64,000 nt of DNA, taken from assembly GCA_963763775.1 (NCBI GenBank), contig CAVXPZ010000001.1:640001-704000 (forward strand), written 5' to 3'. This document shows positions 10,042 to 33,960 of this stretch, in pieces. The notes under the pieces were generated by a model. That model saw only the letters and a list, made by a program, of their open reading frames with translations. It was not told where the DNA came from and ran no database searches. Positions within the stretch are counted from its first letter, which is position 1. The number at the start of each line of letters is the position of its first letter. The DNA is from an uncultured Chloroflexia bacterium (GTDB taxonomy: Bacteria > Chloroflexota > Limnocylindria > Limnocylindrales > CSP1-4). The position numbers and the translations under genes were made by a program.

Positions 10042-10045
10042 GAGG

Positions 10046-11756
10046 TCAGGACGCCGTCGCGACCTCGCCGCGCCACGACTCGGCACGGTCGAGGAGCTCT
10101 CGGGCCGCGGCCAATCCGGCCGCCGTGCCGTCGCCGCTCGCGTCCGCGCTGCCCAGCATGTGGGCGAGCTCGACGATCCGGCCCTCGCGGTCGAGCCGCT
10201 CCACCTCGGTCACGGTGCGTCCGTCACGCTCACGCTTCGTGATCCGGAACTGGGCGTCGGCGTGCGCGGCGATCTGCGGCAGATGCGTGACGCACAGGAC
10301 CTGATGGCGACGAGCGAGGGTCCAGAGGCTCCGGCCGACCGGGTCGGCACTCCGGCCGCCGATGCCCGTGTCGACCTCGTCGAAGACGAGGGTCGGGGTC
10401 TCGTCGGCCTCCGCGAGGACCTGCTTGATCGCAAGTGCCACGCGGGACAATTCTCCGCCCGAGGCGATCCTCGCCAACGGCCGGCGCGGCTCGCCGGCGT
10501 TCGGGGCCAGTCGGTACACGACCTGGTCGATGCCCGACGCATCGAAGGCGACCGCGTCGCCGTCGAGCTCGATGGCCGGCTCGGTCGGGCCCGCGGGTCG
10601 CCGGCCGAGCGAGACGTCGAACACGTCAGCCGGGAACCCGAGCTCGACGAGCACCGCGCCGACCGCCGAGGCGAGGATCCCGCCCGCCCCCGCCCGTGCC
10701 GCCGAGAGGGCCGCCGCCGCACGAGCGACCGCCTCGAGGAGGCGGGCATCGTCGGCTTCCCGAGCCGCACGCTCCACGTCGACGCCGCGAAGGCGTTGGG
10801 CCTCCTCGAGCGCGCGTTCCCCGTGCGCGACGACCGCCGCCTCGTCGTCGCCATACCGCCGTTCGAGACCGAAGATCGTCCCGAGCCGCTCCTCCATCGT
10901 GGCGATGGCGGCCGGATCGTGCTCGACGGTCTCGGCGAGCGACCGCGCTTCGGCCGCCACGTCGGCGAGCTCCGCCTCCAGCCCACCCAGACGCTCGGCG
11001 AGCGGCCTCGAACCGCGGGTCCACGCGCGCGATGCCCCGCGCCTCGCGGAGGGCCACGGCGGCGCTCTCGCGGGCCCCGCCGCCTTCCGCGGTCAGCGCT
11101 TCGTGGACGGCCGCGGCGCCCCGCGCGATGGCCTCACCGTGCTGCGCGGCCGCGAGCCGTGACCGGATCTCGGCGGCCTCGCCCGGCCGGAGGCGCGCGG
11201 CCGCGATCTCGGCCGCCTCGTACTCCAGGACCTCGAGCCGACGCGCGAGCTCGCGGGGATCCACGACGAGCGCGTCCAGCGCGTCCCGATTGGCCCGCCA
11301 CGCGTCCACGGCCGACGCCATCGCGCTCCGGAGCCCTTCGTGGCCACCGAACGCGTCCAGCAGGTCCCGCTGCCAACGCCCGTCGAGGAGCCGCTGCTGA
11401 TCGTGCTGGCCGTGGACCTCGACGAGTGGCCCGACCTCCTCGCCGAGACGGGCGGCGGTGACCGCGTCGTCGTCGAGGCGCGCGGTCGACCGGCCGCTCG
11501 CCGCGACCTCGCGCACGGCGATGATCGGTTCGGGCAACCGGTCGAACAGGGCCTCGACCCGTGCGGCCTCCGCCCCGTGGCGGACCAGGGACGTGTCCGC
11601 CCGCGCGCCGGTCACGAGTCCCAGGGCGTCGATGATGAGGCTCTTCCCTGCCCCGGTCTCCCCGGTCAGGACGTTGAAGCCGGGCTCCAGCCCGAGTCGC
11701 ACCCGCTCGATGACCGCGAGATCGGTGACCGTGAGTTCGAGCAGCCGTCCGGTCAC
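10046..11756 (-). CDS. recN: DNA repair protein RecN (frameshift near 11000)
   Basis: LTGETGAGKS, VHGQHDQ, IASGGELSR, FDEVDTG, VTHLPQIAA. Confidence 0.92.
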
Positions 11757-18654: not shown

Positions 18655-19168
18655 CGGTGTTCCAGTTGCGCGAGGTCGAGGTGACGCCGAGCCGTCGTTC
18701 GATGACGTCGTTCGTGAGCCGCGAGCGGCCGGCACCGTCGCGATACCAGACGTAGAGCGCTCGCTCGCCGAGCCGGATGACGTCCGGCGCGAATCGGTCC
18801 TGGTCGATGGTGTCGAAGCGGCCTGGCGCTGGATCGCCGGACAGGAACGCCACGTGGAGCTTCGACGGCTCCGCGACCCCGTCCGGCAGCGGGTTGGCCG
18901 CGATGACGCGCCCGAGGTCCGCGCCCGTCCGGACGAGCACCGCGACGGACAGGCCGAGTCGCGCCAGGATGGCCGCCTCGATCGTCGCGGCGACCGCGTC
19001 CGGGTCATGCGGGTCGTCATCGACGGTCAGGAGCGCGTTGCCGCTCTGGAGGAGCGTCTCGACGTCGCGATAACCGGCATCGGTCAGGAGTGACCGCAGG
19101 TCGGCCATCGCGACCCGCTTGTTGCCGCCCACGTTGATGCCCCGCAGGAGCGCGACCAGGCGCGTCAC
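18623..19168 (-). CDS. DUF1697 family protein
   Basis: ALLRGINVGGNKRVAMADL..LQSGN..TSRNWNT. Confidence 0.85.
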   Translation of the reverse strand: MTRLVALLRGINVGGNKRVAMADLRSLLTDAGYRDVETLLQSGNALLTVDDDPHDPDAVAATIEAAILARLGLSVAVLVRTGADLGRVIAANPLPDGVAEPSKLHVAFLSGDPAPGRFDTIDQDRFAPDVIRLGERALYVWYRDGAGRSRLTNDVIERRLGVTSTSRNWNTVTKLADLAAR

Positions 19169-19183
19169 GCGGCGAGCTCGTCG

Positions 19184-19459
19184 CTAGCCGTTGGGTTCGT
19201 CGATCGCCTCGTCGGGTGCGACCGGGCGGGTCTCGAGGGTGCCGCCGGCGCGCGACACGAGCTGCTCGAGCCGCAGTTGCGCGTCGTTCAGCAGGCGGTC
19301 GCAGCGGTCGATGAGCGCCGCGCCACGCTCGTGGAGCGTGAGGGCCTCCTCCAGCGGCTGGCCGCCGGCCTCGAGCTCCGCCACCGTCCGCTGGAGCTCC
19401 GCGAGGGCGTCATCGAAGGCGAGGTCCTCGACGCGTGGCGGCTGGGCGGCGTCGTTCAC
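19184..19459 (-). CDS. xseB: Exodeoxyribonuclease VII small subunit
   Basis: FDDALAELQRTVAELEAG..LEEALTLHERG..C..LNDAQ. Confidence 0.88.
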   Translation of the reverse strand: MNDAAQPPRVEDLAFDDALAELQRTVAELEAGGQPLEEALTLHERGAALIDRCDRLLNDAQLRLEQLVSRAGGTLETRPVAPDEAIDEPNG

Positions 19460-19584
19460 GAGGGCTCCTCGTCGTCATCGTCACGGGAGGCGAGCCGGCC
19501 GATCGCCGGTGCCAGCATCATACCGAGCCGCACCCCGACGACGGCGAGCACGGCCACGAGGCCGAGGAAGATCAGCAGGTCCAT
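19456..19584 (-). CDS. 42-aa single-pass membrane microprotein (not in ORF track)
   Basis: MDLLIFLGLVAVLAVVGVRLGMMLAPAIGRLASRDDDDEEPS; GC3-rich codons; stop overlaps xseB start (GTGA). Confidence 0.65.
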   Translation of the reverse strand: MDLLIFLGLVAVLAVVGVRLGMMLAPAIGRLASRDDDDEEPS

Positions 19585-19596
19585 CCGTCGCCGACC

Positions 19597-20949
19597 CTAC
19601 CCGGCCGACTCGTCCACGGTCGCGCCGATCGTGCCGGTCGCGACGCGGATGTCGACGCCGGTCCCGACCGGGGCGTCGCCGGCGGCCCGGATGATGGCCC
19701 CGTCCGGGCGGCGCCGGACGATCGCGTAGCCGCGGTCGAGGGTCGCCTGCGGACCGAGGACGGCGAGCGCCGCCGCCGACGCATCGAGCGAGGCTCGGGC
19801 CGCCGTCAGGCGACCCTGGGTGAGCCGTGGCAGGACCGAGGCGGCGCGCTCGAGGCGACCGCGATCCCGGCCGAGCCGCGCATCGAGGGCGCGTGTGGCG
19901 CGGTCGAAGAGCAGGCCGACCTGCTCTCGTGACGCCACGAGTCGATTGGCCGGGCCGACGCGCTCCAGCGCCCGTCGTTCCGCCGAGAGATCGCGGGTCG
20001 CGCTGGACAGGCGCGCCGCCGTGACGGCCGAGAGTCGCGCCCCGGCCCGGCGGAGCGCCGCCGACATCTCGGTCCGGTCGGGGACGACGATCTCGGCGGC
20101 CGCGGACGGGGTCGGCGCCCGGACGTCCGCCGCGAAGTCCGCGAGGGTCACGTCGATCTCGTGCCCGACGCCGCAGACCACGGGGATCGGGTGGCCGACG
20201 ACCGCGCGCACGACGCGCTCGTCGTTGAACGACCAGAGGTCCTCGAGCGAGCCGCCGCCTCGCGCCAGGATCGTGACCTGGGGCGCCTCGACGGCGCGGC
20301 CCGCGGCGACCAGCTCGTCCCGATGACGCTCGAGCCGGCGGAACGCGGACACGATGCTCGCCGGCGCTTCCTCGCCCTGGACCTTGGTCGGCACGAGCAG
20401 CACCCGGGCGATCGGCCAGCGGCGCGCGAGGACCGTGACGATGTCCTTCCAGACCGCCCCGGTCGGGCTGGTGATGACGGCGATCGTCCCCGGGCGGGTA
20501 GGAAGCGGGCGCTTCCGCGCCGGGTCGAAGAGGCCCTCGGCGGCAAGTCGGGCCTTCAGCTCCTCGAAGCGGAGGGCGAGGTCCCCCACCCCGGCCGGCT
20601 GGAGCGCCTCGACGTAGAGCTGCAGGGCACCCTGCGGCTCGAAGAGGTCCATCCGCCCGTGCGCGACCACACGGAGCCCGGCGCGCGCCTCGAACACCGA
20701 CCGGAGGCGGTCGTCACGGAACCACACGCACTGGAGCTGGCTGCGCTCGTCCTTGAGCGTGAAGTAGGCGTGACCGGCCGACGAGATGGTGACGCGGCCG
20801 ATCTCGCCCTCGACCCACAGGTCCGCGAGGCGCGGGTCCTCGCGGATGGCGCCCTTGATCGCCCGGGTGACCTCGGTGACGCCGAGGATCCGGACGCCGA
20901 ACGTGCCAGGCGGGGTGACGCTCGCGGGCCGGGGATCGGCGGTGTCCAC
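19597..20949 (-). CDS. xseA: Exodeoxyribonuclease VII large subunit
   Basis: WVEGEI..GHAYFTLKD, ARGGGSLEDLWSFNDE, GVGHEID, RAPTPSAAAE. Confidence 0.95.
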   Translation of the reverse strand: MDTADPRPASVTPPGTFGVRILGVTEVTRAIKGAIREDPRLADLWVEGEIGRVTISSAGHAYFTLKDERSQLQCVWFRDDRLRSVFEARAGLRVVAHGRMDLFEPQGALQLYVEALQPAGVGDLALRFEELKARLAAEGLFDPARKRPLPTRPGTIAVITSPTGAVWKDIVTVLARRWPIARVLLVPTKVQGEEAPASIVSAFRRLERHRDELVAAGRAVEAPQVTILARGGGSLEDLWSFNDERVVRAVVGHPIPVVCGVGHEIDVTLADFAADVRAPTPSAAAEIVVPDRTEMSAALRRAGARLSAVTAARLSSATRDLSAERRALERVGPANRLVASREQVGLLFDRATRALDARLGRDRGRLERAASVLPRLTQGRLTAARASLDASAAALAVLGPQATLDRGYAIVRRRPDGAIIRAAGDAPVGTGVDIRVATGTIGATVDESAG

Positions 20950-20961
20950 GGCAGGACCGGG

Positions 20962-21519
20962 TCAGACCCGGGTCTGGTACTCGCCCGTCCGGGTGTCGAC
21001 GCGGATCGTGTCGCCGATCTCCACGAAGATCGGGACGGTCACGACGAGGCCGGTCTCGGTGGTGGCGTTCTTGCGGGCGCCCGTCTGCGTGTCGCCCGCG
21101 AACCCGGGCTCCGTGTCGGCGACGACCAGGTCCACGGTGACCGGGAGCTCCACGCCGATGGTCTCGCCCTGGTAGCTCGTCCGGTCCAGGGTCATCCCGT
21201 CCTTGAGGTAGCGGGCGGTCTCGCCGAGCTGGTCGGTCGTGAGGACGAACTGGTCGTACGTGTCGTTGTCCATGAAGTGGTAGTCGTCGCCGTCGCGGTA
21301 CAGGAACTGCACCGGGCGCTTCTCCATGGACGCGCGCGGCCACTTCGTCCCGGCCTGGAAGGAGCGCTCCACGGTCTGGCCGCGCTTGATGTTGCGCAAT
21401 GTGATGCGAACCTGCGCCGAACCGCGGCCCATCTTGATGTGGTGGTAGTCGAGGATCTGCCAGAGCTCGCCGTCGAGCTCGATGGCGACGCCCTTCTTCA
21501 GTTCACCGGTGCTGATCAT
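20962..21519 (-). CDS. efp: Translation elongation factor P
   Basis: QFLYRDGDDYHFMD..YDQ, TEPGFAGDT, ETGLVVTVPIFVEIGDTIRVDTRTGEY; tip loop HIKMGRGSA. Confidence 0.95.
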   Translation of the reverse strand: MISTGELKKGVAIELDGELWQILDYHHIKMGRGSAQVRITLRNIKRGQTVERSFQAGTKWPRASMEKRPVQFLYRDGDDYHFMDNDTYDQFVLTTDQLGETARYLKDGMTLDRTSYQGETIGVELPVTVDLVVADTEPGFAGDTQTGARKNATTETGLVVTVPIFVEIGDTIRVDTRTGEYQTRV

Positions 21520-21631
21520 GTCGAGGTGGGCTCCTGGGGGCGACCGCGGGGCGCGCGCACGCGGGGTTCGCGGTTCGAGGGTGGTTGGCCCGTCATTCTA
21601 GCCGAGCCGGCCACCGCGTCCGCGGCGGCGT

Positions 21632-21859
21632 TCAGTCCTCACGCTGCAGCGCGTCGAGACGAGCCTGGTACTCGCTCGGGTCGATCTCACCGCGTGCGAG
21701 GCGGGCCTTGAGCTCGGCGACGGCCGGGTCCTCGCTCGGCGGAACGCTCCGGCGGATGGCCCAGACGATCACGCCGACGATGAGCACGGTCGTGACGATC
21801 GGCACCGCGAACGCGAGGACGAACATCGGGCCGAGGAACCCGAACGGGTCGAAGGACAT
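21632..21859 (-). CDS. Small membrane protein with SHOCT domain
   Basis: One TM helix then AVAELKARLARGEIDPSEYQARLDAL. Confidence 0.75.
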   Translation of the reverse strand: MSFDPFGFLGPMFVLAFAVPIVTTVLIVGVIVWAIRRSVPPSEDPAVAELKARLARGEIDPSEYQARLDALQRED

Positions 21860-21902
21860 GGCCGACAGCGTAGCGGCGGCACATCTGGGCCGTCAGCTCC
21901 CG

Positions 21903-21928
21903 ACGGCGGCGGAGTCGGACGCCGCCGT
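21903..21928. repeat. Perfect 9-bp GC hairpin
   Basis: ACGGCGGCG-N8-CGCCGCCGT. Confidence 0.55.
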
Positions 21929-22000
21929 GCCGCCGCGCTGCCGAGCGCCGTGGCCGCCGCAGGCCGCCGCGGGTGCCCGCCGCGCCTGCCGTGGCCGCCG

Positions 22001-22163
22001 CAGGAATCCCACTCCTAGGATCCGGGCTTGGTGCCCCTCTTCCGCGAAGGTGAGCGCCTGTCACACCCTATCGGCTCGTGGTCCACGCGCACCGGAGCTC
22101 GATCGCGCGTGGACTTGAGGCGCGGCAGGCCCCACACGTGCCGATGTAGGAACCGGATTCCTA
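22001..22163. repeat. Paired palindromic-box element, copy 1
   Basis: CAGGAATCCCACTCCTA (22001-22017) and TAGGAACCGGATTCCTA (22147-22163), 146 bp start to start; internal perfect hairpin 22081-22114. Confidence 0.8.
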
Positions 22164-22175
22164 GACGCGCGACGG

Positions 22176-23402
22176 TCAGCCCCCGACGACGATGACCTCG
22201 CGTGGGAATCGCGTGAGGCGTTCCACCCGACGGGCGGCCGCGTCCAGCAGGACAAGGTCCTCGATGCGGACGCCGGTCTCGCCGTCCAGGTAGACGCCTG
22301 GCTCCACCGAGAACACGGTCGGACTCGGCAAGGGCGCGTCCGCCGCGGCCTTGCCGAGGCTCGGGCCTTCATGCGTGGCCAGCCCGATCCCGTGGCCCGT
22401 CCCGTGCCCGAAGTGCTCGCCGTGTCCGGCCTCGGCGATCGTGGTCCGCGCCACGGCGTCCACGGCCAAGCCGCTCGGGACCGGCTCCCCGGCTGCGACG
22501 GCGCGCTCGACCGCCTCGATCGCGTTCGCCTGGGCCGCGGCCACGAGCTCGTAGATCGCCAGGTCGCGCGCCTGCGGCTCGCCGACGAACAGCGTGCGCG
22601 TCATGTCGCTGCGGTAGCCGTCGACCTGGGCCCCGAAATCGAAGAGGAGGACCGCCCGGTCGAGGACCGGCTCGTCGCGTGGAGAACCGTGCGGCAGTGC
22701 CGCCTGCGGCCCGGAGAGCACGGCGCCGACGAAGGCCACCGACTCCGCGCCACCGGTGCGGATCGCCCATTCGAGCTGGAGCGCGAGCGCGGCCTCGGTC
22801 ACGCCGGGACGGATCGACGGCAGCAGCGCGGCCAGCGCCCGGTCCGCCACCGCGCAGGCCGCGGCCACCCGCTCGAGCTCGGCCGGCTCCTTGGTCGCCC
22901 GGTCGGCCTCGACCCACCCCTCCACCGGGACGAGCTCGACGTCCGGCGCGGCGGCCTGGAGACGCGCCCACGTCGCCTGCGAGACGAACCCGGCCTCGAC
23001 CGCGACCCGTCGCGCCCCCACGGACGCGACGAGTCCGGCCCAGCGCGACGGCAGGTCGTGGTACGCCTCGAAGAGCCGGGCGTCCGGCGCCTCGCGCCGC
23101 ACCTGGATCGCGTACCGCGAGTCGGCGAGCACGACCACCTCGTCGCCGCCCACGAGGAACTGGCCCGACTGGCCGGCCACCTTCTCCTCCCCTTCGCCAA
23201 GGACCATGCCGGTCAGGTATCGCGTGTGCTCGGGTCGGACGCCGAAGTACGCGTCGACACCAGCGGCCGCGAACCGGTCGCGGAGACGTCCGAGGCGGGC
23301 CGGGCGGGCGGCGCGGTCCGCGTCGAACCAGGCGACGCGCTGGGCGGCGGTCGGCGGGGCGGCGAAGTCGGCCGGCGTCGGCCGGGCCGCTCCGTCAGCC
23401 AC
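22176..23402 (-). CDS. Xaa-Pro aminopeptidase/dipeptidase (M24B)
   Basis: DFGAQVDGYRSDMTRT, HGTGHGIGLATHE, VEPGVY, GVRIED; usual neighbour of efp. Confidence 0.92.
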   Translation of the reverse strand: MADGAARPTPADFAAPPTAAQRVAWFDADRAARPARLGRLRDRFAAAGVDAYFGVRPEHTRYLTGMVLGEGEEKVAGQSGQFLVGGDEVVVLADSRYAIQVRREAPDARLFEAYHDLPSRWAGLVASVGARRVAVEAGFVSQATWARLQAAAPDVELVPVEGWVEADRATKEPAELERVAAACAVADRALAALLPSIRPGVTEAALALQLEWAIRTGGAESVAFVGAVLSGPQAALPHGSPRDEPVLDRAVLLFDFGAQVDGYRSDMTRTLFVGEPQARDLAIYELVAAAQANAIEAVERAVAAGEPVPSGLAVDAVARTTIAEAGHGEHFGHGTGHGIGLATHEGPSLGKAAADAPLPSPTVFSVEPGVYLDGETGVRIEDLVLLDAAARRVERLTRFPREVIVVGG

Positions 23403-24774
23403 CGGCCGGCTGGTACTTCGCGACGTTCTTGAGGTGCTGCTTGTAGGTCTTCGCGAAGGCCGTCGTGTCGGACCCGTCGTTCTTCGCGATGAAGAACAGG
23501 TACCCGTCCTTCGTATCGGGGTCCAGGGCGGCGTCGAGCGAGGGTAGCGTCGGCGTCGCCAGGGGGCCCGGGGGCAGCCCCTTGCTCGTGTAGGTGTTGT
23601 AGCCGGCGAGGTCGTCGGGCAGCGCGTCGGTGGTCAGGCCGCCCTTGATCGGTGCCCAGAACACGTAGTCCTTCCATGTCGCGAAGGGCTTGTCACGCAG
23701 CGTGAGCGTGTCGTGCAGATAGAAGATCGTGGGGTCCGACTGGAGCAGCTGCGTCGGGAAGAGCGCCGGGTCAAGGCGGTTCTGGTACACGCCGGCGATG
23801 AGCGGGCGCTCCTCGTCGAGCTTGGCCTCGCGCTCGACGATCGACGCGAGGGTCAGCACCTCGTAGAACGAGAGCCCGCGCGACTTGGGGACGTCCATCC
23901 GCTCGGGCCCGACGTTCTTCGCGAAGTTGTCGAGCATCAGGCGGACCAGCTCGTCGGCCGTCGTGTCCGGCAGGATCTTGTAGGCGGCGGGCCACAGGAA
24001 CCCTTCCAGCGTCGCGCCCTTCGGCGCGTCGGCGAGGATCTTCTTCAGCCACGGATAGTCGTTGATGAGGTCCTTCGGGGGGTTCGTGACCTCGTCGTAG
24101 AAGTCCTTGGGGTCCATGTCCAGCGGCAGTGTCTGGAGCTTGGCCGTGATCTGCTCGAGGCGCAGGCCGGTGCGGAGTCCGAGATCGACGTAGGGCACCG
24201 GGGCCGGGGCGAGCAGCGAGGTGACCATCTCGGCGGGGGTCATGTTCTTCCGAAGCAGGAAGGTGCCGGCCTGGAGCTTCCCCGTCAGGGCCTGCTCCGT
24301 GGCGATGAACACGAAGGCGCGGTCGTCGAGGAGCAGGCCCTCCTGCTCCAGGCGCGTCGCGATCGTGGAGGCGGTGTCGCCGGACTGGACGACGAATTCG
24401 ATCTGGGCCGGATCCGTCGAGGCCGGCGTCGTCATGGCCGCGCCGATGTCCGCCTCGACGACGTCCTTCACGAACGGCATGGAGAGGGCCGCGGGGTTGT
24501 CCTTGGCCCAACCCAGGACCGCGCTGTTCACGAGCGGCCGCAACGCCGTCAGCATGACCACGAGGACCAGGCCGCCGAGCACCAGGGCGAAGATCAGGAA
24601 CTTGAGGACGCCGCCGATCCCGCCACCGCCACGACCGTTCCGCCCGTTCCGACCGTCGCGCATGACCGGCTCGGAGAACGGCGGGATGACCTCCGTGGCA
24701 TACGCCTCCTCGTCGTACGGATGGGCATGCGGGGAGCGTGCGTCGCGGGGGCGTCCGCCGGAGCGGAGCGTCAT
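23395..24774 (-). CDS. mltG: Endolytic transglycosylase MltG (YceG)
   Basis: N-terminal TM; LEGFLWP, LASIVERE, IAGVYQNRL, LQSDPT, YNTY..GLPPGPL. Confidence 0.92.
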   Translation of the reverse strand: MTLRSGGRPRDARSPHAHPYDEEAYATEVIPPFSEPVMRDGRNGRNGRGGGGIGGVLKFLIFALVLGGLVLVVMLTALRPLVNSAVLGWAKDNPAALSMPFVKDVVEADIGAAMTTPASTDPAQIEFVVQSGDTASTIATRLEQEGLLLDDRAFVFIATEQALTGKLQAGTFLLRKNMTPAEMVTSLLAPAPVPYVDLGLRTGLRLEQITAKLQTLPLDMDPKDFYDEVTNPPKDLINDYPWLKKILADAPKGATLEGFLWPAAYKILPDTTADELVRLMLDNFAKNVGPERMDVPKSRGLSFYEVLTLASIVEREAKLDEERPLIAGVYQNRLDPALFPTQLLQSDPTIFYLHDTLTLRDKPFATWKDYVFWAPIKGGLTTDALPDDLAGYNTYTSKGLPPGPLATPTLPSLDAALDPDTKDGYLFFIAKNDGSDTTAFAKTYKQHLKNVAKYQPAGG

Positions 24775-25268
24775 GGTCGGCTCTCCGAGGGGTCGCTGGT
24801 CGGGGTCAGGGACGATCGGGTCCCGGCGCGGGCGTCGAGCTCATCCTGGAGGATGATCGCGGCCGCCTCGCGGTCCACGCGAGCCCGATAGGCGTCACGC
24901 TGGGCTCGCGTCGGCGGTCCGCCCGACCGGCCTCGCTTCATCGGACCGAGACGGTCCTCCGCGAGGTGGCTGGTCAGTCGCTCGTCGCGAAAGGTTAGCG
25001 GCAATCGCAGATCCGCGGCGACCGCGGTCCCCCACGATCGCGTCAGCGCGGCTTGTGGGCCTTCCTCGCCCGAGACGTCGTACGGCAGCCCGACGACGAG
25101 TTCCCCGACCAGGTGTGCCTCGACGAGGGCTCGCAGGGCGGTCACGTCACCAGCGCGGTCGCGGGCGCGGCGCAGCGTGGTCAGCGGCCGCGCGGCCGCG
25201 CCGTCGCCATCCGCCACGGCGACCCCGACGCGCTTCTCGCCGAGGTCGATGCCCAGGATGCGACTCAC
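24771..25268 (-). CDS. yqgF: YqgF/RuvX RNase H-fold nuclease
   Basis: ILGIDLGEKRVGVA, VVGLP, DERLTS, VDREAAAIILQ. Confidence 0.92.
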   Translation of the reverse strand: MSRILGIDLGEKRVGVAVADGDGAAARPLTTLRRARDRAGDVTALRALVEAHLVGELVVGLPYDVSGEEGPQAALTRSWGTAVAADLRLPLTFRDERLTSHLAEDRLGPMKRGRSGGPPTRAQRDAYRARVDREAAAIILQDELDARAGTRSSLTPTSDPSESRP

Positions 25269-27118
25269 GGCGCCGGCGACGGTGAGGCGGTCTCGATCCG
25301 GACGGCGTCGTTCACGCTGAGGTCCACGCGGCCGTCGATCGTCGGGATGGTCGACACCCAGTCCGGCCAGGCGGCGAGTTCCACGGCGCCGTAGGCCGCC
25401 AGGATCCGCTTGGCGTCGTCCAGCGTCTTGCCGAGGACCTGGTGCTTGAGCTGCGCCGGGTCGAGGATCGCGGTCTCGCGGGCCGACGCGGTCGCGGGGA
25501 AGCTGATCCGCCCGCCGGTGACCACGGCCGGGTCCACGGTCACCTCCACGGAGCCGTCCACGAGACGGTGGCCGCTGTCGATGCCCGCCTTGAGGCGTTC
25601 GGCGGCGATGGCCTTGACCGGGTCCGCGTTGACGGCCGTCGCGGTGCCGGTGGCCGTCACGCCGAGGTCGAACGATTCGATCTCCTGGTCGACGAGCGAT
25701 GCCGGGTCGACGGTGGGCGTGGACGACCCGAGGAGCCGGGTCTCCGGGAAGACCGTGGCGCCCGGCGACGCGATGCTCGGATCCTTGAGCTGTTCCACGA
25801 ACGCGGCGTCGAGCTGCGCCGTGAGCGACGTCATCGCGCCGTCGACATCCGCCTGCGTGACCTTCGGGAACTCGTCGTGCTTGCCGCCGGTGGTGGCGTC
25901 GGGGTTGTTGACGTCGAGCGAGATGGGGTCTTCGCCGCGAGGGATGACCGTGATGGTGTTCGGTTCGACGTTGCCTTCCGTCCCGGCCTTGACCGCCGTG
26001 ACCTTCACGCTCGCGGTCTTGGGGAACACCTGGAGCCCCACGATGTCGGCGCGCGGCACCGTGACCGTGGCCATCGTGCGGAACCGCGTGCCGTTCGGCG
26101 TGCTGACGATGCTGCCCCCGGGGATCGTGTTCGAGGACGTGAAGTCCTTGTTGCGGAACCGGACGATGCCGGTGGCCTTGGCCTGCTCCACGCGCTTGCC
26201 GGTCGCCGGGAACGTCCCGCTGGTGGCGACGTCGACCGTCACCGTCTCGGCGGGCACGACCGGCGGGTCGCTGGTGGCATCGGGCGCGGTGGCACCAGGA
26301 TCGGCCTCGATCGTCATCGCGACGGGGCCGAGCGACTGCTCCTTCGGCGTCACGACGATCGTCGCGGATGGCAGGAACAGGTACGCGCCGACGCCAGCCA
26401 CGAGGATCACGAGCGCCAGCGCCCCGAGGGCCACCGCGAGCGGCGTGCGGCTCCGGCTCCCGGACGATGGGCGGGCCGCATCCCTTCCGGGTCGGCCGGC
26501 GAGCCGCGGTTCGGTCGGACCGCTCACGGTCGAGGTCACCGGGACCGGGTCCGGGTCCGGACGGACCGGCGGCGTGGCCGCGATCGCCGCGGCGGCGGTC
26601 GCAAGCTCGGCCGTCTCCATCTCATCGAGCGTGGCCTGCTGCGGTGGCCGTGCGGCCTTCGACGCGCGACGCTTGGTGCCGGACGCGGGGACGCGGGCGG
26701 CCTCCCCGCTGGTTGGCTCGGTCGGCTCCGCGGACGTCGCGGATCCGGCGGTCGCCGCCGCTCCGGCCGCGCCCGTCGCGAGCCCGGCCGCGGCGACGCC
26801 GGCCGCACCGCCGGTCCCGTCGCCGCGGGGCGGCTTGGGCGCCTCCTCGGACGCCTCGTATTCCGCGATCGTGCTGAAGACGGGGAGCCCGGCCGAGGCC
26901 GCGAGCGCCCGGGTCGCCGCGTCCCCGGCGACGACCGAGAGACGCTTCTCGTGGGTGAGGGCGTCGCGGGAGAGCAGCCGGAAGTTGATCCGCGACGTCG
27001 CGACGCGCGACCCGTACGGCAGGACCACGGCGACGCGCCGCCCCTCGGCCGCGCGGATGCGCGCCGCCGCCGAGGTGATCTCGTCGTCGATATCGAGGTA
27101 GATGATCCCGCCGGCCAC
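25265..27118 (-). CDS. Bitopic membrane protein with baseplate J/gp47-like extracytoplasmic domain
   Basis: About 80-aa N-terminal domain, Ala/Pro linker, single TM, then ATGIVRF..IPGGSIVST..GTRFRT..VKVTAVKAGTEGNV..NTIT..VNNPDATTGG, resembling the baseplate-J pattern. Confidence 0.75.
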   Translation of the reverse strand: MAGGIIYLDIDDEITSAAARIRAAEGRRVAVVLPYGSRVATSRINFRLLSRDALTHEKRLSVVAGDAATRALAASAGLPVFSTIAEYEASEEAPKPPRGDGTGGAAGVAAAGLATGAAGAAATAGSATSAEPTEPTSGEAARVPASGTKRRASKAARPPQQATLDEMETAELATAAAAIAATPPVRPDPDPVPVTSTVSGPTEPRLAGRPGRDAARPSSGSRSRTPLAVALGALALVILVAGVGAYLFLPSATIVVTPKEQSLGPVAMTIEADPGATAPDATSDPPVVPAETVTVDVATSGTFPATGKRVEQAKATGIVRFRNKDFTSSNTIPGGSIVSTPNGTRFRTMATVTVPRADIVGLQVFPKTASVKVTAVKAGTEGNVEPNTITVIPRGEDPISLDVNNPDATTGGKHDEFPKVTQADVDGAMTSLTAQLDAAFVEQLKDPSIASPGATVFPETRLLGSSTPTVDPASLVDQEIESFDLGVTATGTATAVNADPVKAIAAERLKAGIDSGHRLVDGSVEVTVDPAVVTGGRISFPATASARETAILDPAQLKHQVLGKTLDDAKRILAAYGAVELAAWPDWVSTIPTIDGRVDLSVNDAVRIETASPSPAP

Positions 27119-27120
27119 GT

Positions 27121-28383
27121 TCAGACCTTCATCGCGCGCAGGACCCGCCGCAGGGCAGCGTCGAGCGGATCCTCGGTCGTCTGCAATTCGATCGCCTGGT
27201 ACGCGAGGCCGAGCGGCGTGACGTCCTGCTGGTCGACCAGCAGGTCGGTGGAGTCGGAGATCGTCTCGATCTGATCTGGAGCCATCACCGTGACCTCGGG
27301 TGGTCGGGCGAACGGCAGGCTCTTGAAGAATGCCTCAGATGCCAGCGCCGTGCGGATCTCGGGCAGGCGCGACCCGCCGCCGCACAGGTAGATCCGACCC
27401 GGGAGGAGCTCCCCGCCGGACAGCTCCTCCATCACGAGCTCGACGCCCGCGGCCCAGACGCGGACGTCGTCGCCCACGATCTCGGCGACGTTGTCGCGGT
27501 CGTCGACGGGCAGGCCCCGGGCGTAGTCCACCTTCACGGCCTCGGCACGCGGGAACGGCAGGTCGAGGCGGTCCGCGAGACTCTTCGTGAACGCGCGGCC
27601 GCCGAGCGCGAACATCCGGGTGCCCTCGATGCCGCCCTGGCGGACCAGCGCCACGTCCGTGGTCCCGCCGCCGACGTCGATGAAGAGCGCGCCGGACTGG
27701 CGGATCTGGTCGCTGCCGAGGACCCGCGCGACCGCGTACGGCTCGGCCACGATCTCGAGGAGCTCCAGGTCCAGCTGGCTTGCGACGCTCTGGAGCGCGC
27801 CGAGATGGACGAGCGGAGCGAACGCGTTGAAGATCCCGATCTTCACGTGCCGACCCTGGAACCCGACCGGGTTGGTCAGCGCGTAGCCGTCGATCGAGGC
27901 GCCCGTGATGGCCGCGTGGACCAGCCGGACGTCCACGTGGGGCAGCCCGGTCTCCCAGATGATCGCGCGCTCGGCCTCGTGGAGCGCCTCGCGCTGGACC
28001 ACGTCGATGAGCTTCTGGAGCTCGTTCTCGGTGATCGGCTGGTCGGGTTTCTTGCGCTCCTGGGAGTGGGTGGTGGTGAAGCCCTTCACGAGCTCGCCGG
28101 CGATCCCGATCACGACCTGCGTGGGACGGAACCCGGCCATCTCCTCGGCTTCCTGGAGCGCGACGGCGCAGTTGTCGACCACCGCGGCGATGTCGGCGAC
28201 CGTGCCCGACTGCATGTGCGACAGCCCCTGGCGCTTGCGGCCGACACCACGCACGGTGCCGTGCCCCGCGGCGTCGATGTCGAAGACGAGGGCCTTGGCG
28301 AACTCCGTGCCGACGTCGAGCGCCGTGCACGCGGCAAGGCTCTCCCCCTCGTCGCGTTGCCAGATCCGGCGCCAGAAGGCCAT
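27121..28383 (-). CDS. FtsA-like actin-fold ATPase
   Basis: ALDVGTEFAK, AEPYAVA, FIDVGGGTTD, LCGGGSRL; 1C-like insert ..IDGYALTNPVGFQG. Confidence 0.85.
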   Translation of the reverse strand: MAFWRRIWQRDEGESLAACTALDVGTEFAKALVFDIDAAGHGTVRGVGRKRQGLSHMQSGTVADIAAVVDNCAVALQEAEEMAGFRPTQVVIGIAGELVKGFTTTHSQERKKPDQPITENELQKLIDVVQREALHEAERAIIWETGLPHVDVRLVHAAITGASIDGYALTNPVGFQGRHVKIGIFNAFAPLVHLGALQSVASQLDLELLEIVAEPYAVARVLGSDQIRQSGALFIDVGGGTTDVALVRQGGIEGTRMFALGGRAFTKSLADRLDLPFPRAEAVKVDYARGLPVDDRDNVAEIVGDDVRVWAAGVELVMEELSGGELLPGRIYLCGGGSRLPEIRTALASEAFFKSLPFARPPEVTVMAPDQIETISDSTDLLVDQQDVTPLGLAYQAIELQTTEDPLDAALRRVLRAMKV

Positions 28384-31134
28384 CAGGCCGCCGTTTCGAT
28401 GGCGGCCCGGATCGCGGCGAGGGCGGCAGGCAGGCCTTCGCGACGAGTGCCCTTGCCCTGCGCCATCTCGGGGCGGCCGCCGCCCCGGCCGTCGATGGCG
28501 GTCATCGCCGCGTTCACGAGCGCCCCGGCCGAGATGCCGCGGGTCGTCAGGTCCGGCGACACCGTCACGAAGAGCTGCGGCTCTTCCGCGTCGAGCGCCA
28601 AGGCGACCACCCCCGATCCCAACGCGGCGCTGACCGCGCGGGCCGCCCCTTTGAGCGCTTCCATCGAGTCGTATGGGGCGGCACCCGCGACGAGCCGGAC
28701 GCCGGGCGCCACGTCCGCGGCCGCGGCGAGGAGCTGCTCGGGCGTGGCGACCCCGCCCGCGCCGCCGGCCTTCAGGCGTCGCCTCGTCTCGCGCAGCTCG
28801 TCCTGGAGCGCGGCGACCCGTTCCGGGACGGCCTCGAGCGTCTGGGCGCCGAGCGCCTCGGCGGCTCGCTCCAGGACGTCGACCCGTTGCCGGCCCAGCG
28901 CGTCCGCGGCAGCGCCGGTGACGGCCTCGATCCGGCGCATGCCGGTGCCGATGCTGCGCTCGCCGGTGATCGTGAAGCCGCCGATCTGGCCGCTGGCGCG
29001 GCAATGCGTCCCGCCGCACAGCTCGAACGAGTAGTCCTGGACACGGATCGTCCGCACGGTCTCCCCGTACTTCTCGTCGAAGAAGGCGTCGGCGCCGCCC
29101 TCGATCGCCTCGGCCATGCTCATGAACGCGATCGAGACGGGCCGGTCCTCGCGGATGATGCGGCGGACCTCGTCCTCGATCGCGCGCTTCTCGTCGTCGG
29201 TGAGGGCGCGGTCCAACGGGAAGTCGAAGCGGAGGTAGTCCGGCGTGACGAGCGAGCCGGCCTGGCGAGCCTTCTCGCCCACCACGTTCCGCAGAGCCCG
29301 ATGCAGCAGGTGCGTGCCCGTGTGGTTGCGCATCGTGTGCGCGCGGCGCTCGGCGTCCACGACCGCCTCGACCGTCTCGCCGACACGGAGGCGACCCCGG
29401 AGCGTCCCGCGCTGGACGAACAGGCCCGCAAGCGGCTTCTGCGTGTCCTCGACGTCGAACAGGACGCTCCCGCCGCCGGGCTCGCGCAATGTCCCGCGGT
29501 CGCCGATCTGCCCGCCGCCCTCGCCGTAGAACGGCGTCCGGTCGAGGACGACCTCCGCCTCGCCGTGCCCGGTGAGCTCGTCGTACTCCATGCCGTCGCG
29601 GATGATCGCCACGACCCGGGCGTCGGACGCGGTCGTCTCGTAGCCCAGGAACGCCGTATCGCCCGTGCGGGCCTGGATGGCCTGGTACAGCGAGATGAGC
29701 TCTGCGTGCTTGGCGAGCTCGGCCTTCTTGCCGGAGCGGGAGCGCTGGCGTTGTTCGGCCAGGGCCGCGTCGAACCCGTCGCGGTCGACCCCGACGCCGT
29801 ATTCGGCAGCGAGCTCGATGGTCAGGTCGATCGGGAACCCGAACGTGTCGTGGAGCCTGAAGGCGACGGCACCGGGCAGTTTCGGCGCATCCGGCCGGGA
29901 GCGCCTCGGGCCGACGGCCGATGACCCGCTCCGACGTCGCCAGGCCGGCGAGCGCCTCCTCCAGGAGCCGCGTCCCCGCATCGAGCGTGCGGCCGAACTG
30001 CGCCTCCTCGCGGGCGATGGCGGCAAGGACCTCCTCGCGACGCTCGACGAGATGCGGATAGGCCTCGGCCATGATCGCGATGACGACTTCCGCGAGGTCC
30101 GCGAGGAACGGCTCGCGGCGCCCGAGGAGCCGGCCGTGCCGCACCGCGCGACGGACGATCCGGCGCAGGACGTACCCCCGCCCTTCGTTGGAGGGCAGCA
30201 CGCCGTCGGCGATGAGGAACGTGACCGCGCGCGAGTGGTCGGCGATCACCTGGTAGCTGAACCGCTCCGCCTCGAAATCGCCCGGGTCGTGACCGAGGAG
30301 CGCGCGGAGGCGGTCGTGGATCGGCGTGAAGAGGTCCGTGTCGAAGTTCGACGGGACCTGCTGGAGCACGCTCGCCAGCCGCTCGAGGCTCATCCCCGTG
30401 TCGATGCTCTTGAACGGCAGCGGGTGGCGCCCGTCGGCCCGCTGGTCGAACTCCATGAACACGAGGTTCCAGATCTCGAGCCAGCGCGGACAGTTCTCCG
30501 AGTGGTCCGGGACGCACTCCGGCCCCTCGGAGAGGTGCGCGCCGCGGTCGAAGTGGATCTCGCTGCACGGCCCGCACGGGCCGGTGTCGGCCATCCGCCA
30601 GAAGTTGTTGTCGTCGCCCGCGTCGACATCGCCCCAGCGCGCCATCCGGTCCGGCGGCAGGCCGATCTCGTCGCGCCAGACCGCCCAGGCGACGTCGTCG
30701 TCGGTGTACGTGGTGGCGGCAAGCCGCTCTTCGGGGATGCCCAGGTCCTTGGTCAGGAAGTCCCACGCGAAATGGATCGCCTCGCGCTTGAAGTAGTCGC
30801 CGAAGCTCCAGTTGCCGAGCATCTCGAAGAACGTGTTGTGGCGCGTGGTCCGGCCGACCTCCTCGAAGTCGTTGTGCTTGCCGGCGACTCGCAGGACCCG
30901 CTGGTAGTCCACCGCCCGGGTATACGAGCGCGTCTCCGACCCGGTCAGGACCTCCTTGAACTGGACCATCCCGGAGTTCGTGAAGAGCAGCGTCTGGTCG
31001 CCGGCCGGGACGAGGCTGGCGCTCGCGACGTGGGCGTGGCCGCGCTCCTCGAAGAACTCGACGAAACGGCGGCGGATCTCGGCGGCGGACCGGGACGTGA
31101 TCCGGGGGTCGTGCTGGGCGGTCGGGGACGGCAT
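28383..31134 (-). CDS. alaS: Alanine-tRNA ligase (frameshift near 29895)
   Basis: TLLFTNSGMVQFK, FFEMLGNWSFGDYFK, GPCGPCSEI, NHTGTHLL, ELCGGTH, GRGGG..MAQG. Confidence 0.95.
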
Positions 31135-31194
31135 CGCGCGCAATGGTACCGAACGGGCGACCGGCCACGGCCACGATGGGGCAGTCGGGGCGAT

Positions 31195-31393
31195 CTAGTC
31201 GGGCGTCGCGACGTCCTTCGGCTTGACGACGGGGGCGTCGGGCACGGACCGGGGCCGACGGGCGGCCGGCCGGCACGGTGGCGGCGGCGCGACCACATGG
31301 ACGACCCGGCGAGCACCGCGCCCACGAGGGCGCCGATGGTCAGTCCGCGCAGGAACGTGGCGGCTGGTCGCGAGCTTCGTCGTCCGCGCTCAC
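31195..31393 (-). CDS. Small hypothetical membrane protein (frameshifted)
   Basis: TFLRGLTIGALVGAVLAGS hydrophobic segment; boundaries reconstructed across indels. Confidence 0.4.
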
Positions 31394-31674
31394 GACCACG
31401 GTTCTCCGACGGCCCGAGCACCGAGACGACGCTGACGACGAGCGATGCCGATCCAGGCCACGACCGATCGCCGCGACCAGGCGGAAGTCGCCGATCGGAG
31501 CCGATCGTCAGCCCGAGGCGGTCGCCCAGCGTGTCACCGGCCCACGCCCCGAGGATGGCCGCGGCGACGATGAGCGGCAGCCGCCCGCCGCCCGTCCCGC
31601 GGATCACCAGCCAGAGGGCGGCGTTCGCGACCCCCACCAGGATCCGCCAGCACCAGCGCCGGCCCGACACTCAC
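31390..31674 (-). CDS. Small multi-TM membrane protein, possibly GlsB/YeaQ-like (frameshifted)
   Basis: [27 protein letters not shown]; GTG overlaps mnmA stop; several indels. Confidence 0.45.
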
Positions 31675-32779
31675 GCCGACGCCGCGAGGGCCGGGTCGCG
31701 GGCGATCCGGCCGCCACCGAGCACCTGGTCGCCGTCGTAGAGGACCGCCGCCTGGCCCGGCGCCACGGCCCACACCGGCGCGTCCGTGGTGACCGTCCAT
31801 CGCGATGGTCACCGGCGGCCGGTCCACGGTGGCCGGGACCGGGATCGCCGCGGTGGCGGATCCGGACCCGGCGCGGAACGTCGCGGCCGCGGGCGCATCG
31901 CCCGCGACGAACGACGCGCGTTCGAGCTCGACGGTGTGCGTCTCGAGGTCCTCCCGGCGGCCGAGCTGGATGGTGTTCGTCAGCGGGTCGATCCGACTGA
32001 CGTAGCGCGGCTCGCCGAGGGCCACGCCGAGACCCTGCCGCTGGCCGACCGTGTAGCCGGCCGCGCCGTGGTGCTCGCCGACCCGTTCGCCGTCGACGTC
32101 GAGGAGCGGTCCGGGCTCCGCGCACCCATCCGGCTCGCTCGCGGAGCGCGTCGCGGTAGTCGCCGCCCGGGACGAAGCAGATCTCCTGGCTCTCGGGCTT
32201 GTCGGCCGTGGCCAGGCCCAGGTCGCGGGCGACCGCGCGGACCTCGGGCTTGGTGAGCTCGCCGAGCGGGAACCGCGCGTGCTCCAGCTGGTCCTGCCGC
32301 AGGCCGTACAGGAAGTAGGTCTGGTCCTTGTCCTCGTCGACGGGCTCGGCAGGAGCCTCGCCCGGCCGTCGTCGCCGATCGTCGCGGCGCGCGTAGTGGC
32401 CGGTCGCGACCGCCTCGCACTCGTAGAGGTGCCGAGCGCGGCCGAGCAGCGCCCCGAACTTCACGTACGTGTTGCAGTCGACGCACGGGCTCGGCGTCCG
32501 CCCGTCGAGATACGCGTCGAGGAACGGCTGGAGGACGCCGGCGTCGAACTCGCGCTCGAGGTTCATGACGTAGAACGGGATGCCGAGCTGTGCGGCGACG
32601 CGCCGGGCGTCGTCGGCGGCGTCGAGCGAGCAGCAGCTCTTCTTGAACTCGGAGTACGTGTCGGCGACGTCGTGGAGGCGCATCCAGACGCCGACCACCT
32701 CGTGCCCCTGCTCGTGCAGCAGCGCCGCCGCGACCGAGGAGTCCACCCCGCCCGACATCGCCACGAGGACCCGGCTCAC
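31671..32779 (-). CDS. mnmA: tRNA 2-thiouridylase (several frameshifts in 3' half)
   Basis: [41 protein letters not shown]; C-terminal [18 protein letters not shown]. Confidence 0.92.
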
Positions 32780-33960
32780 GCGGGGACGCCCTGCCCGAGC
32801 GGGTCCGCGGCGACCATCGCGGCGCCGACCCGCATCGAGGCGACGACCCGCGGCACGATCTCGCACGCGGTGGCGATGTCCTCCTCGGTCGTCGTCCGGC
32901 CGAGTGAGAGACGGAGGGCGCCGCGCGCCTCTTCGTCGGGGTAGCCCATCGCCGTCAGGACGTGGCTCACTTCGGTCGAGCCCGTCGTGCAGGCGCTGCC
33001 GACCGAGGCGGCGATGCCCTCGAGGTCAAGCGAGAGCGCGACCGCCGAGCCGTCGATGTCGCGCGCGACCATGGAGAAGTGGCCGGGCAGGCGATCCTTC
33101 GGGTGGCCGGTCCACTCGGTGCCGGGGATGGCCAGGACGGCCTTGGCGAGGCGATCGCGAAGCCTTCGCAGACGCGCGGCGGTCTCCGGGCGCTCGGCGC
33201 CCGCGAGCTCGAACGCCATCGCGAGCCCGACGGCGCCGGCCACGTCCTCGGTGCCGGCCCGGCGGTGCCGCTCCTGGGTGCCGCCCTGCTGCTGCGCGAG
33301 GATGTGCGTCCCGTGCCGCACGTACAGCGCCCCGACCCCCTTGGGACCCTCGAACTTGTGCGCGCTGATCGACAGGAGGTCCACGCCGAGCTCGTCGACG
33401 TCGAGGTCGAGGTATGGGGCCGCCTGGACGGCGTCGACGTGGAGCACGACGCCCTTGTGTGCCCGCACCCGCTTGGCGATCTCCGCGACCGGCTGGATCG
33501 TCCCCACCTCGTTGTTGGCGAGCATCACGGACACGAGGGTCGTGCGATCGGTGATCGCCGCGTCGACCTGGTCGGGATCGACGCGCCCATAGCGGTCGAC
33601 CGGCACCTCGACGACCTCGAAGCCGAACTTCTCGAGGTAGCGAAGCGTGTGCCCGACCGCGTGGTGCTCCACCGACGACGTCACGATCCGGTGGCCGCGG
33701 GCCTTGCCGGCCCACGCCGCGCCCTTGAGCGCGAGGTTGTTCGCCTCGGTCCCGCCGGAGGTGAGCACGATCTCGCGGGCTTCGGCGCCGAGCCGTCGCG
33801 CGATGCGCAGGTGCGCGTCGTCGAGGGCGGCGCGGGCCGCGCGACCGTAGGTATGGGCCGAACTCGGGTTCCCGAACGTGCCCGTCAGGTACGGCAGCAT
33901 GGCGTCGAGGACCTCGCGGCGCAGCGGGGTCGTGGCCGCGTGATCGAGGTAGATCGGCAT
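32776..33960 (-). CDS. iscS: Cysteine desulfurase, IscS/NifS group
   Basis: [39 protein letters not shown]. Confidence 0.92.

Follow-up and report, generated by a model that had tools for sequence, protein, structure and literature searches.

What is the role of two extra genes, one for an actin-like ATPase and one for a single-pass membrane protein, that lie between alaS and ruvX (yqgF)-mltG on the chromosome of an uncultured soil bacterium of the Limnocylindrales (Chloroflexota)? We addressed this question for a stretch of 64,000 nucleotides (the window; contig CAVXPZ010000001.1 of assembly GCA_963763775.1, here C1:640001-704000) from a genome of 3.3 Mb that comprises 4 contigs and is 87% complete. 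The ATPase is referred to as FAL (FtsA-like ATPase) and the product of the adjacent gene, the single-pass membrane protein, as the partner. According to the original prediction, made from the letters of the window alone, the two proteins form a trans-envelope cytoskeletal module. We find that most Chloroflexota with peptidoglycan carry the partner in a fixed position immediately upstream of ruvX-mltG, that about a third of them have FAL, and that FAL is a paralogue distinct from divisome FtsA. Complex prediction indicates that the N-terminal domain (N-domain) of the partner probably binds FAL. Whether the pair acts together as an envelope module at the cytoplasmic membrane appears to us evenly balanced.

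By pairing an actin-like protein with a single-pass partner, bacteria relay positional cues from the cytoplasm to the envelope. FtsA-FtsN, MreB-RodZ and PilM-PilN all follow this scheme, in which the actin-like protein lies beneath the membrane and grips a protein that crosses the membrane once and extends to the wall; the pair described here would be one more. Most wall-bearing Chloroflexota, a phylum that is large and little studied, have it at the same chromosomal position, and its outer domain and phage baseplates have a common ancestry. The phylum includes organisms that are abundant in soil, freshwater and wastewater. Little is known of how these grow their walls and divide, and the pair provides a testable entry point. 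No paper on the FAL-partner pair was found in full-text literature searches.

FAL is a paralogue of divisome FtsA

FAL matched the Pfam families FtsA (PF14450) with 55.4 bits and MreB_Mbl with 32.2 bits. The ftsA equivalog model TIGR01174 scored 108.1 bits, under its cut-off of 175.85, and the models for pilM (TIGR01175; 30.1 bits, under the cut-off of 133), mreB (TIGR00904; 25 bits, under the cut-off of 365.75) and eutJ all scored far below the ftsA model. A canonical ftsA is present elsewhere in the same genome (C1:218163-219276; 224.9 and 174.8 bits to TIGR01174 in two frames), beside ftsZ (C1:220023-220979; 413.6 bits) and ~450 kb from the FAL locus. The genome also contains two MreB genes (C3:88997-89578 and C3:349382-349975). 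Coexistence of canonical FtsA (389-450 bits, above cut-off) and FAL (94-116 bits) was observed in 5/5 further Chloroflexota genomes. In a maximum-likelihood tree of 21 FAL, 5 FtsA and 5 MreB sequences, FAL and FtsA formed separate clades with a Shimodaira-Hasegawa-like approximate likelihood ratio (SH-aLRT) support of 99 each, on long branches (1.4 and 1.79). Note that the tree shows separateness and not origin, because all rows are from Chloroflexota and PilM was not included. Thus, the original prediction that the ATPase is unlinked to ftsZ and is not the canonical FtsA held, given the separate ftsA-ftsZ pair (C1:218163-220979), the score below the FtsA cut-off and the position of FAL in a clade of its own. 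Public records name FAL 'cell division protein FtsA' or 'FtsA domain-containing protein', an annotation that is misleading where a true FtsA coexists.

The AlphaFold model of FAL (predicted local distance difference test score (pLDDT) 89.2; predicted template modeling score 0.86) matched FtsA best (7q6i; E 3.7e-33, template modeling (TM) score 0.73-0.86 over ~400 columns), followed by PilM (TM 0.57-0.78; 5eou 0.63-0.74; 2ych) and then EutJ. An insert like subdomain 1C of FtsA had been predicted and was present in the model at residues 100-169, though Pfam SHS2_FTSA was not among the FAL matches at E 0.1. The predicted actin ATPase motifs were also in place. Residues D23, G25, D236, G238, G335 and G336, the Gly and Asp positions of phosphate and adenosine binding, were invariant across 20 FAL orthologues. 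The subdomain at the position of 2B is made up of helices 262-272, 277-288 and 296-322 in the model. The C-terminal helix had a hydrophobic moment of 0.81, the highest of all FAL 11-mers (mean 0.29, standard deviation 0.15), and FAL may bind the membrane through this helix.

With PilM as the second-best fold match, FAL and the partner could also be viewed as a platform of the PilM-PilN or GspL type, with the ATPase and the bitopic membrane protein serving as the inner-membrane base of machinery for building or anchoring a surface structure. We consider this very unlikely in light of the low pilM score and the gene neighbourhood: the genes conserved next to the pair are ruvX and mltG, and pilN/O/P/Q, secretin, pilin and sortase genes are absent among the annotated neighbours.

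A protein of 791 residues (P0399), encoded on one contig of 3961 bases, combines Ser/Thr kinase domains (PF00069, PF07714) with a FAL-like domain that is 46% identical over 95% of FAL. As a single record it is a possible artefact; if real, it would hint at control by phosphorylation.

The partner is more widespread than FAL

We analyzed the distribution of both proteins in a sample of 301 Chloroflexota genomes drawn evenly. A search with FAL (P0001) gave matches in 107 genomes at E≤1e-20. Full-length orthologues at E≤7e-46 were found in 92 genomes (157-920 bits, 32-100% identity), and 15 of the 107 had a match at the level of canonical FtsA only (73-93 bits, about residues 20-300). The partner, detected by profile search, was present in 217 genomes, including 92/92 FAL-positive ones, in agreement with the expected co-conservation of the two genes. 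Of the 87 genomes for which both places were available, 82 had FAL and partner side by side on the same contig and strand (80/85 without the unpublished genomes G212 and G309). For the five genomes lacking a partner place in this count, adjacency was confirmed in two (G263 and G272) from loci L034 and L038. In the five exceptions (G119, G302, G167, G211, G114) the genes are on different contigs, and in four of them at least one of the two genes lies within ~700 bases of a contig start (the partner in G167).

In 20 FAL loci from 20 genomes, the partner followed FAL in every case. Upstream, alaS preceded FAL in 16, and ruvX-mltG came after the partner in 18, one of the two misses being a contig end. 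The arrangement is not due to chance, because it recurs in many genomes.

What is new here is the occurrence of the partner without a FAL orthologue in 125 genomes (by the full-length criterion), usually still directly before ruvX-mltG. Whole families showed this pattern (f9, 19/19; f12, 6/6; f13, 18/18; f20, 17/17; f30, 7/7). We fetched 12 partner places, 11 from FAL-negative genomes and one where a FAL-positive genome has a second paralogue. In 11 of the 12, ruvX and then mltG directly followed the partner, and in 6 alaS directly preceded it. A FAL-like gene before the partner was found only in L123 and was very divergent (146 bits to the profile), so that the 92 FAL-positive genomes represent a floor. 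Each of five complete FAL-less genomes contained a single FtsA-level protein (63-111 bits) and, in addition, MreB-level matches; a search with the FAL profile gave no FtsA- or MreB-level match near the partner in them. With 217 versus 92 genomes, the partner is the more widespread component, and FAL was either added or repeatedly lost relative to it. Thus, of the view that the partner is a companion of the actin, the pairing stands, and the notion of a mere accessory does not, since the partner occurs more widely and its N-domain is kept without FAL (see below).

Some lineages deviate in detail. In family f23 (L020, L021, L038; G151, G177, G272), the partner is ~880-893 residues long and FAL has an acidic N-terminal extension of ~30 residues. 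These three genomes and G310 (L129) have 3-5 partner-family matches each, with at least one additional full-length paralogue away from ruvX-mltG. In L024 (G325) the partner is present as two open reading frames (ORFs; 9249-10400 and 10189-10821), by a frame shift or a real split. A scan of genome contigs gave 80 near-identical Limnocylindria loci among the matches listed. In the ESM Atlas, the nearest clusters for both proteins included some that occur most often in Candidatus Saccharimonadota (cosine 0.98 for FAL and 0.91-0.92 for the partner), which serves only as a lead to an occurrence outside Chloroflexota. The main text of a transposon sequencing paper on Saccharibacteria (PMC10633639) contains 0 occurrences of baseplate, FtsA, PilM and MltG.

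The cytoplasmic domain of the partner is predicted to bind FAL

Complexes of FAL (20-row alignment) with partner residues 1-95 (59-row alignment) were predicted with ESMFold2. The interface score ipSAE was 0.64, 0.66 and 0.64 in three runs, compared with 0.00 in three controls, supporting the binding of the partner N-terminus that had been proposed. In a benchmark the ipSAE mark was reached by 58/80 solved complexes and by 2/110 mismatched pairs, counts that are only rough here as custom alignments were used. The runs shared at least 92% of contacts, with a partner pLDDT of at least 84. On the FAL side, contacts were predicted for residues 258-272 and 302-317 of the helical subdomain and for residues 58-59, 97-98 and 143-147 of the other lobe; on the partner side, they involved residues 12-22, 38-52 and 68-72. 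If the contact bridges both lobes of the actin-fold ATPase in this manner, it may be sensitive to the nucleotide state. The analogy to FtsN, RodZ and PilN, each of which had been cited as binding its actin-like protein through a cytoplasmic tail, was thus only partly sustained: a contact is predicted, but it involves a folded 95-residue domain and not a short tail as in FtsN and PilN.

The partner contact residues were more conserved than the rest of the N-domain (0.81 versus 0.60), with 1 of 10000 random subsets scoring as high. In 18 FAL-linked partners, identity to the protein of the window was 0.9 at R20, 0.7 at S42 and 0.9 at L48. For the 8 aligned partners from FAL-less loci (L124 and L126, without N-domain match, were left out), the corresponding values were 0.1, 0.1 and 0.2, with lysine in place of arginine at position 20 in 5 of the 8. 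This pattern would agree with an interface tuned to FAL, the lineages not being independent.

The same region of the partner bears on another explanation. The partner might be a divisome accessory whose N-domain binds canonical FtsA where FAL is missing and FAL where it is present, with a septal ectodomain as in FtsN or DivIB. Consistent with such a role, the N-domain (profile positions 2-100) was kept not only in L123 but in 7/10 loci without adjacent FAL (L120, L125, L127, L128, L130, L131 and, weakly, L121), the five complete FAL-less genomes searched each have a single FtsA-level protein, and FAL is sister to FtsA in the MreB-rooted tree. We nevertheless regard it as unlikely, considering that the module is far from ftsA-ftsZ in the genome of the window and that R20, S42 and L48 are poorly kept in the FAL-less partners, suggesting that the target may differ there (with the same caveat on lineages).

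The ectodomain of the partner is homologous to phage baseplate-wedge proteins

The model of the partner (mean pLDDT 84.3) matched the predicted layout of a compact cytoplasmic domain, a disordered linker, one transmembrane helix and a large ectodomain. The N-domain was modeled with block-mean pLDDT values of 87 for residues 1-10 and 96-98 for residues 11-90, and had no Pfam match. Its best fold match was the STAS domain 4xs5 (Z 8.3, root mean square deviation (rmsd) 3.7, 96 residues aligned); other alpha/beta folds gave Z 6.6-7.8, and values of Z <8 are common.

The predicted likeness of the ectodomain to baseplate J/gp47 was confirmed by several searches. Baseplate_J (PF04865) matched residues 311-413 with 26.2 bits (gathering cut-off 21.1) and phrog_6, 'baseplate wedge subunit', with E 2.5e-12. 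Foldseek matches extended over ~335-390 columns (8kea_d, E 7.3e-9; 9euf_I; 9gb2_G; 9b45_j) and also included the GlxA barrel. In an all-against-all structural search, residues 312-414 aligned with GlxA (4unm_A; Z 14.1, rmsd 1.7, 97 residues aligned) and with baseplate-wedge proteins (8kea_b, Z 13.7, rmsd 2.0, 94 residues aligned; 9g8s_C, Z 13.4; 9ki1_H, Z 11.8). The partner ectodomain is homologous to phage baseplate-wedge proteins. Among 8000 candidates scored, 1714 relatives of the partner were found at E≤0.001, with PF04865 in all 120 listed. The family comprised 5144 cluster representatives at E≤0.001, 2585 at 1e-10 and 328 at 1e-30. Public records name the partner 'baseplate J/gp47 family protein' or 'hypothetical protein'.

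Given this homology, the place beside mltG could be a historical accident and the role of the partner unrelated to the wall, for example that of a domesticated phage-tail protein serving as a receptor, as an adhesin or in phage exclusion. The presence of alaS and ruvX, which shows the cluster to be a block of mixed functions, would be in line with this. We hold the accident to be highly improbable. Genes for other tail, sheath, tube or injection-system proteins are absent nearby, and in the PADLOC defence library the partner had no match and FAL reached 13.7 bits. Moreover, single-copy conservation in one chromosomal slot across 217/301 genomes is a housekeeping pattern, and the FAL identity of 87-93% among the best 120 relatives points to strong purifying selection (partner identity is 47-78% among full-length relatives).

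Two further candidates were rejected: a defence system, on the PADLOC result, and a prophage remnant, as no other phage gene is nearby and G+C content is flat (72%) across the window.

A role in peptidoglycan growth or division is favoured

YceG/MltG was present in 264/301 genomes. Of the 30 families listed, f11 (0/1), f19 (0/9) and f29 (0/1), with small genomes of 1.4-2.1 Mb, had no MltG, and all of them also lacked the partner, which is therefore confined to MltG-bearing lineages. In the small-genome sister family f2 (G025-G040, same order as the genome of the window, 1.0-1.4 Mb), MltG was found in 2/2, the partner in 0/16 and 0/2 and FAL in 0/2. The presence of MltG without partner or FAL in this family suggests that the module was lost with genome reduction.

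Since the module keeps its place ahead of mltG and is restricted to lineages with MltG, it most likely belongs to peptidoglycan growth or division. In the mechanism that we propose, FAL, an FtsA-family actin-fold ATPase, would be held on the inner face of the membrane by its amphipathic helix. The 95-residue cytoplasmic domain of the partner would dock on FAL, chiefly at its helical 2B subdomain but also at the other lobe, and would be joined by a flexible linker of ~125 residues and one transmembrane helix to the ectodomain derived from a baseplate wedge. The nucleotide or oligomer state of FAL could then position or regulate the extracellular scaffold, which would act where MltG cuts nascent glycan strands. 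We infer that FAL may polymerize and that the pair may be linked to peptidoglycan and to MltG.

Several points weigh against this reading. The complex score is the model's own confidence, and part of it may reflect likeness, because complexes of FtsA and PilM with partner peptides have already been solved. The FAL contact residues were not conserved above the average of the protein (0.55 versus 0.60). FAL is dispensable for the partner, because 125/301 genomes have the partner with no detected FAL and 5/5 complete FAL-less genomes have a single FtsA-level match; the 217 partner-positive genomes are themselves a floor, because the partner search used a stricter first look. MltG in turn does not need the partner, because six families have MltG without it (f2, 2/2; f4, 4/6; f6, 4/4; f8, 5/5; f16, 12/12; f25, 6/6). 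Finally, gene order alone says little about function, because alaS and ruvX belong to the cluster too and have no envelope role.

In its most far-reaching form, the proposal places the pair at the centre of an ancient machine that spans the envelope of monoderm lineages (Chloroflexota). A nucleotide-driven oligomer of the FtsA-like protein would organize an outer ring or lattice of baseplate-wedge-like ectodomains, and this scaffold would govern where MltG ends glycan strands. We consider this quite unlikely. If true, wall growth would have an organizer that differs from the MreB rod complex as well as from the FtsZ-FtsA divisome and is based on a protein that phage tails also possess.

Gene order and features of the locus

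The tight packing of alaS, FAL, partner, ruvX and mltG was found at all four junctions exactly as first described (Table 1). The alaS stop TGA (28385..28383) overlaps the FAL ATG (28383..28381) in a TGATG, and the FAL stop (27123..27121) is separated by 2 nucleotides from the partner GTG at 27118. The stop of the partner and the GTG of ruvX overlap (GTGA, 25268..25265), as do the stop of ruvX and the ATG of mltG (ATGA, 24774..24771). Upstream of alaS are mnmA, a class-V aminotransferase gene and typA; downstream of mltG are genes for an M24 peptidase, efp, xseA, xseB and a DUF1697 gene. None of ftsZ, ftsQ, mreC or pilN is among the annotated neighbours of the locus, as had been noted. A scan of 19000-32000 for promoters and terminators gave 0 of each, which is uninformative at this G+C content.

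Table 1. Features of the locus (positions in the window; residues of the respective protein).
Feature	Residues	Coordinates	Strand	Basis
alaS (alanyl-tRNA synthetase)		28383..31143	-	two frames, one-base shift near 29886-29893; Pfam tRNA-synt_2c, tRNA_SAD, DHHA1
FAL, 420-aa FtsA-like actin-fold ATPase		27121..28383	-	Pfam FtsA, NCBIfam, model, tree
FAL: strand-helix-strand-strand insert in FtsA subdomain 1C position	100-169	27877..28086	-	model secondary structure, FtsA fold match
FAL: three-helix subdomain (2B by position), most predicted partner contacts	258-322	27418..27612	-	complex prediction; model
FAL: C-terminal amphipathic helix, probable membrane-targeting sequence	406-420	27124..27168	-	model helix 406-417; conserved in 20 orthologues
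Partner, 617-aa single-pass membrane protein, GTG start		25265..27118	-	PF04865, model
Partner: folded cytoplasmic alpha/beta domain (STAS-like by fold, borderline), predicted FAL-binding domain	1-95	26834..27118	-	model
Partner: disordered Ala/Pro/Gly-rich linker	96-224	26447..26833	-	pLDDT <50 over 100-224
Partner: transmembrane helix, Arg-rich N-terminal flank (N-terminus inside)	225-247	26378..26446	-	model and sequence
Partner: ectodomain of baseplate-wedge (gpJ/gp6/gp47) type	248-617	25268..26377	-	Foldseek; model confident 250-610
Partner: beta-barrel common to Baseplate_J proteins and GlxA	312-414	25877..26185	-	structure matches, PF04865, phrog_6
ruvX (yqgF)		24771..25268	-	PF03652 102.8 bits, TIGR00250 83.8 bits
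mltG, YceG-type endolytic transglycosylase		23395..24774	-	PF02618 225 bits, TIGR00247 163.7 bits

Frame breaks were observed at several places. The alaS shift divides the Pfam tRNA-synt_2c profile between two frames: the first matches positions 1-374, and the second matches positions 381-552 together with tRNA_SAD and DHHA1. A similar split affects the canonical ftsA of this genome (C1:218746-218756), and partner genes of relatives also show stops or frame changes. These breaks look like assembly indel errors and not pseudogenes. In the mnmA region (31534-32866, minus strand), the long ORFs 31534..32025 and 31604..32866 overlap, and the longer one has a Pfam match to the N-terminal HUP domain only; this may be a further frame shift.

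Rosetta-stone fusions, namely P0012 (980 aa) and 19 longer proteins joining FAL with alaS, partner or ruvX, were rejected as interaction evidence. The join in P0012 is an out-of-frame read-through after the FAL C-terminus, and all 19 longer proteins are single-member clusters. We read these fused forms as assembly or gene-calling artefacts.

Comparison with known systems

The FtsZ tail reportedly binds FtsA on the 2B subdomain, and the contact predicted for FAL and the partner is likewise mainly on 2B. FtsA with FtsN or FtsZ (7q6i, FtsA-FtsN 1-29; 4a2a, FtsA-FtsZ peptide) resembles FAL in fold, including the 1C-type insert that replaces 1B, and shares with it the C-terminal amphipathic helix and a bitopic membrane partner. 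In contrast to FtsA, FAL scores below the FtsA cut-off, forms a separate clade, has no linkage to ftsZ/ftsQ (dcw) and coexists with a canonical FtsA. Moreover, its partner offers a folded domain of 95 residues and not a short peptide.

PilN contacts PilM with ~12 residues at its N-terminus, and its periplasmic domain is small. As in the pair, PilM-PilN (2ych, 5eou) and the fused GspL combine an FtsA-like ATPase fold with the cytoplasmic part of a protein that spans the membrane once and whose gene comes next, the contact being a predicted one here. They differ from the present locus in that pilus genes are absent from it, the partner ectodomain is large and baseplate-like, and the pilM model scores low on FAL.

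MreB-RodZ acts in wall elongation, with RodZ using a helix-turn-helix domain. Like the partner, RodZ is a bitopic protein with a folded cytoplasmic domain, a flexible linker and an extracellular domain, and it holds the actin-like MreB through the cytoplasmic domain, as predicted here for the partner and FAL. MreB, however, lacks the 1C insert, and FAL has a 1C-type insert; MreB models score ~25 bits on FAL, and the genome of the window has two MreB genes of its own.

The baseplate-wedge proteins of contractile tails (P2 gpJ, T4 gp6, Mu gp47; 8kea, 9euf, 9ki1) have a homologous beta-barrel in common with the partner. Their domain arrangement differs, with rmsd >30 Å over long alignments, and a baseplate gene cluster (gp25/W, tube, sheath) was not found among the ten annotated neighbours. 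In contrast to the wedge proteins, the partner is cellular and sits in the membrane, having a transmembrane helix and a cytoplasmic domain, and unlike in baseplate clusters, it stands in a cellular gene context that recurs in 18/20 and 11/12 loci.

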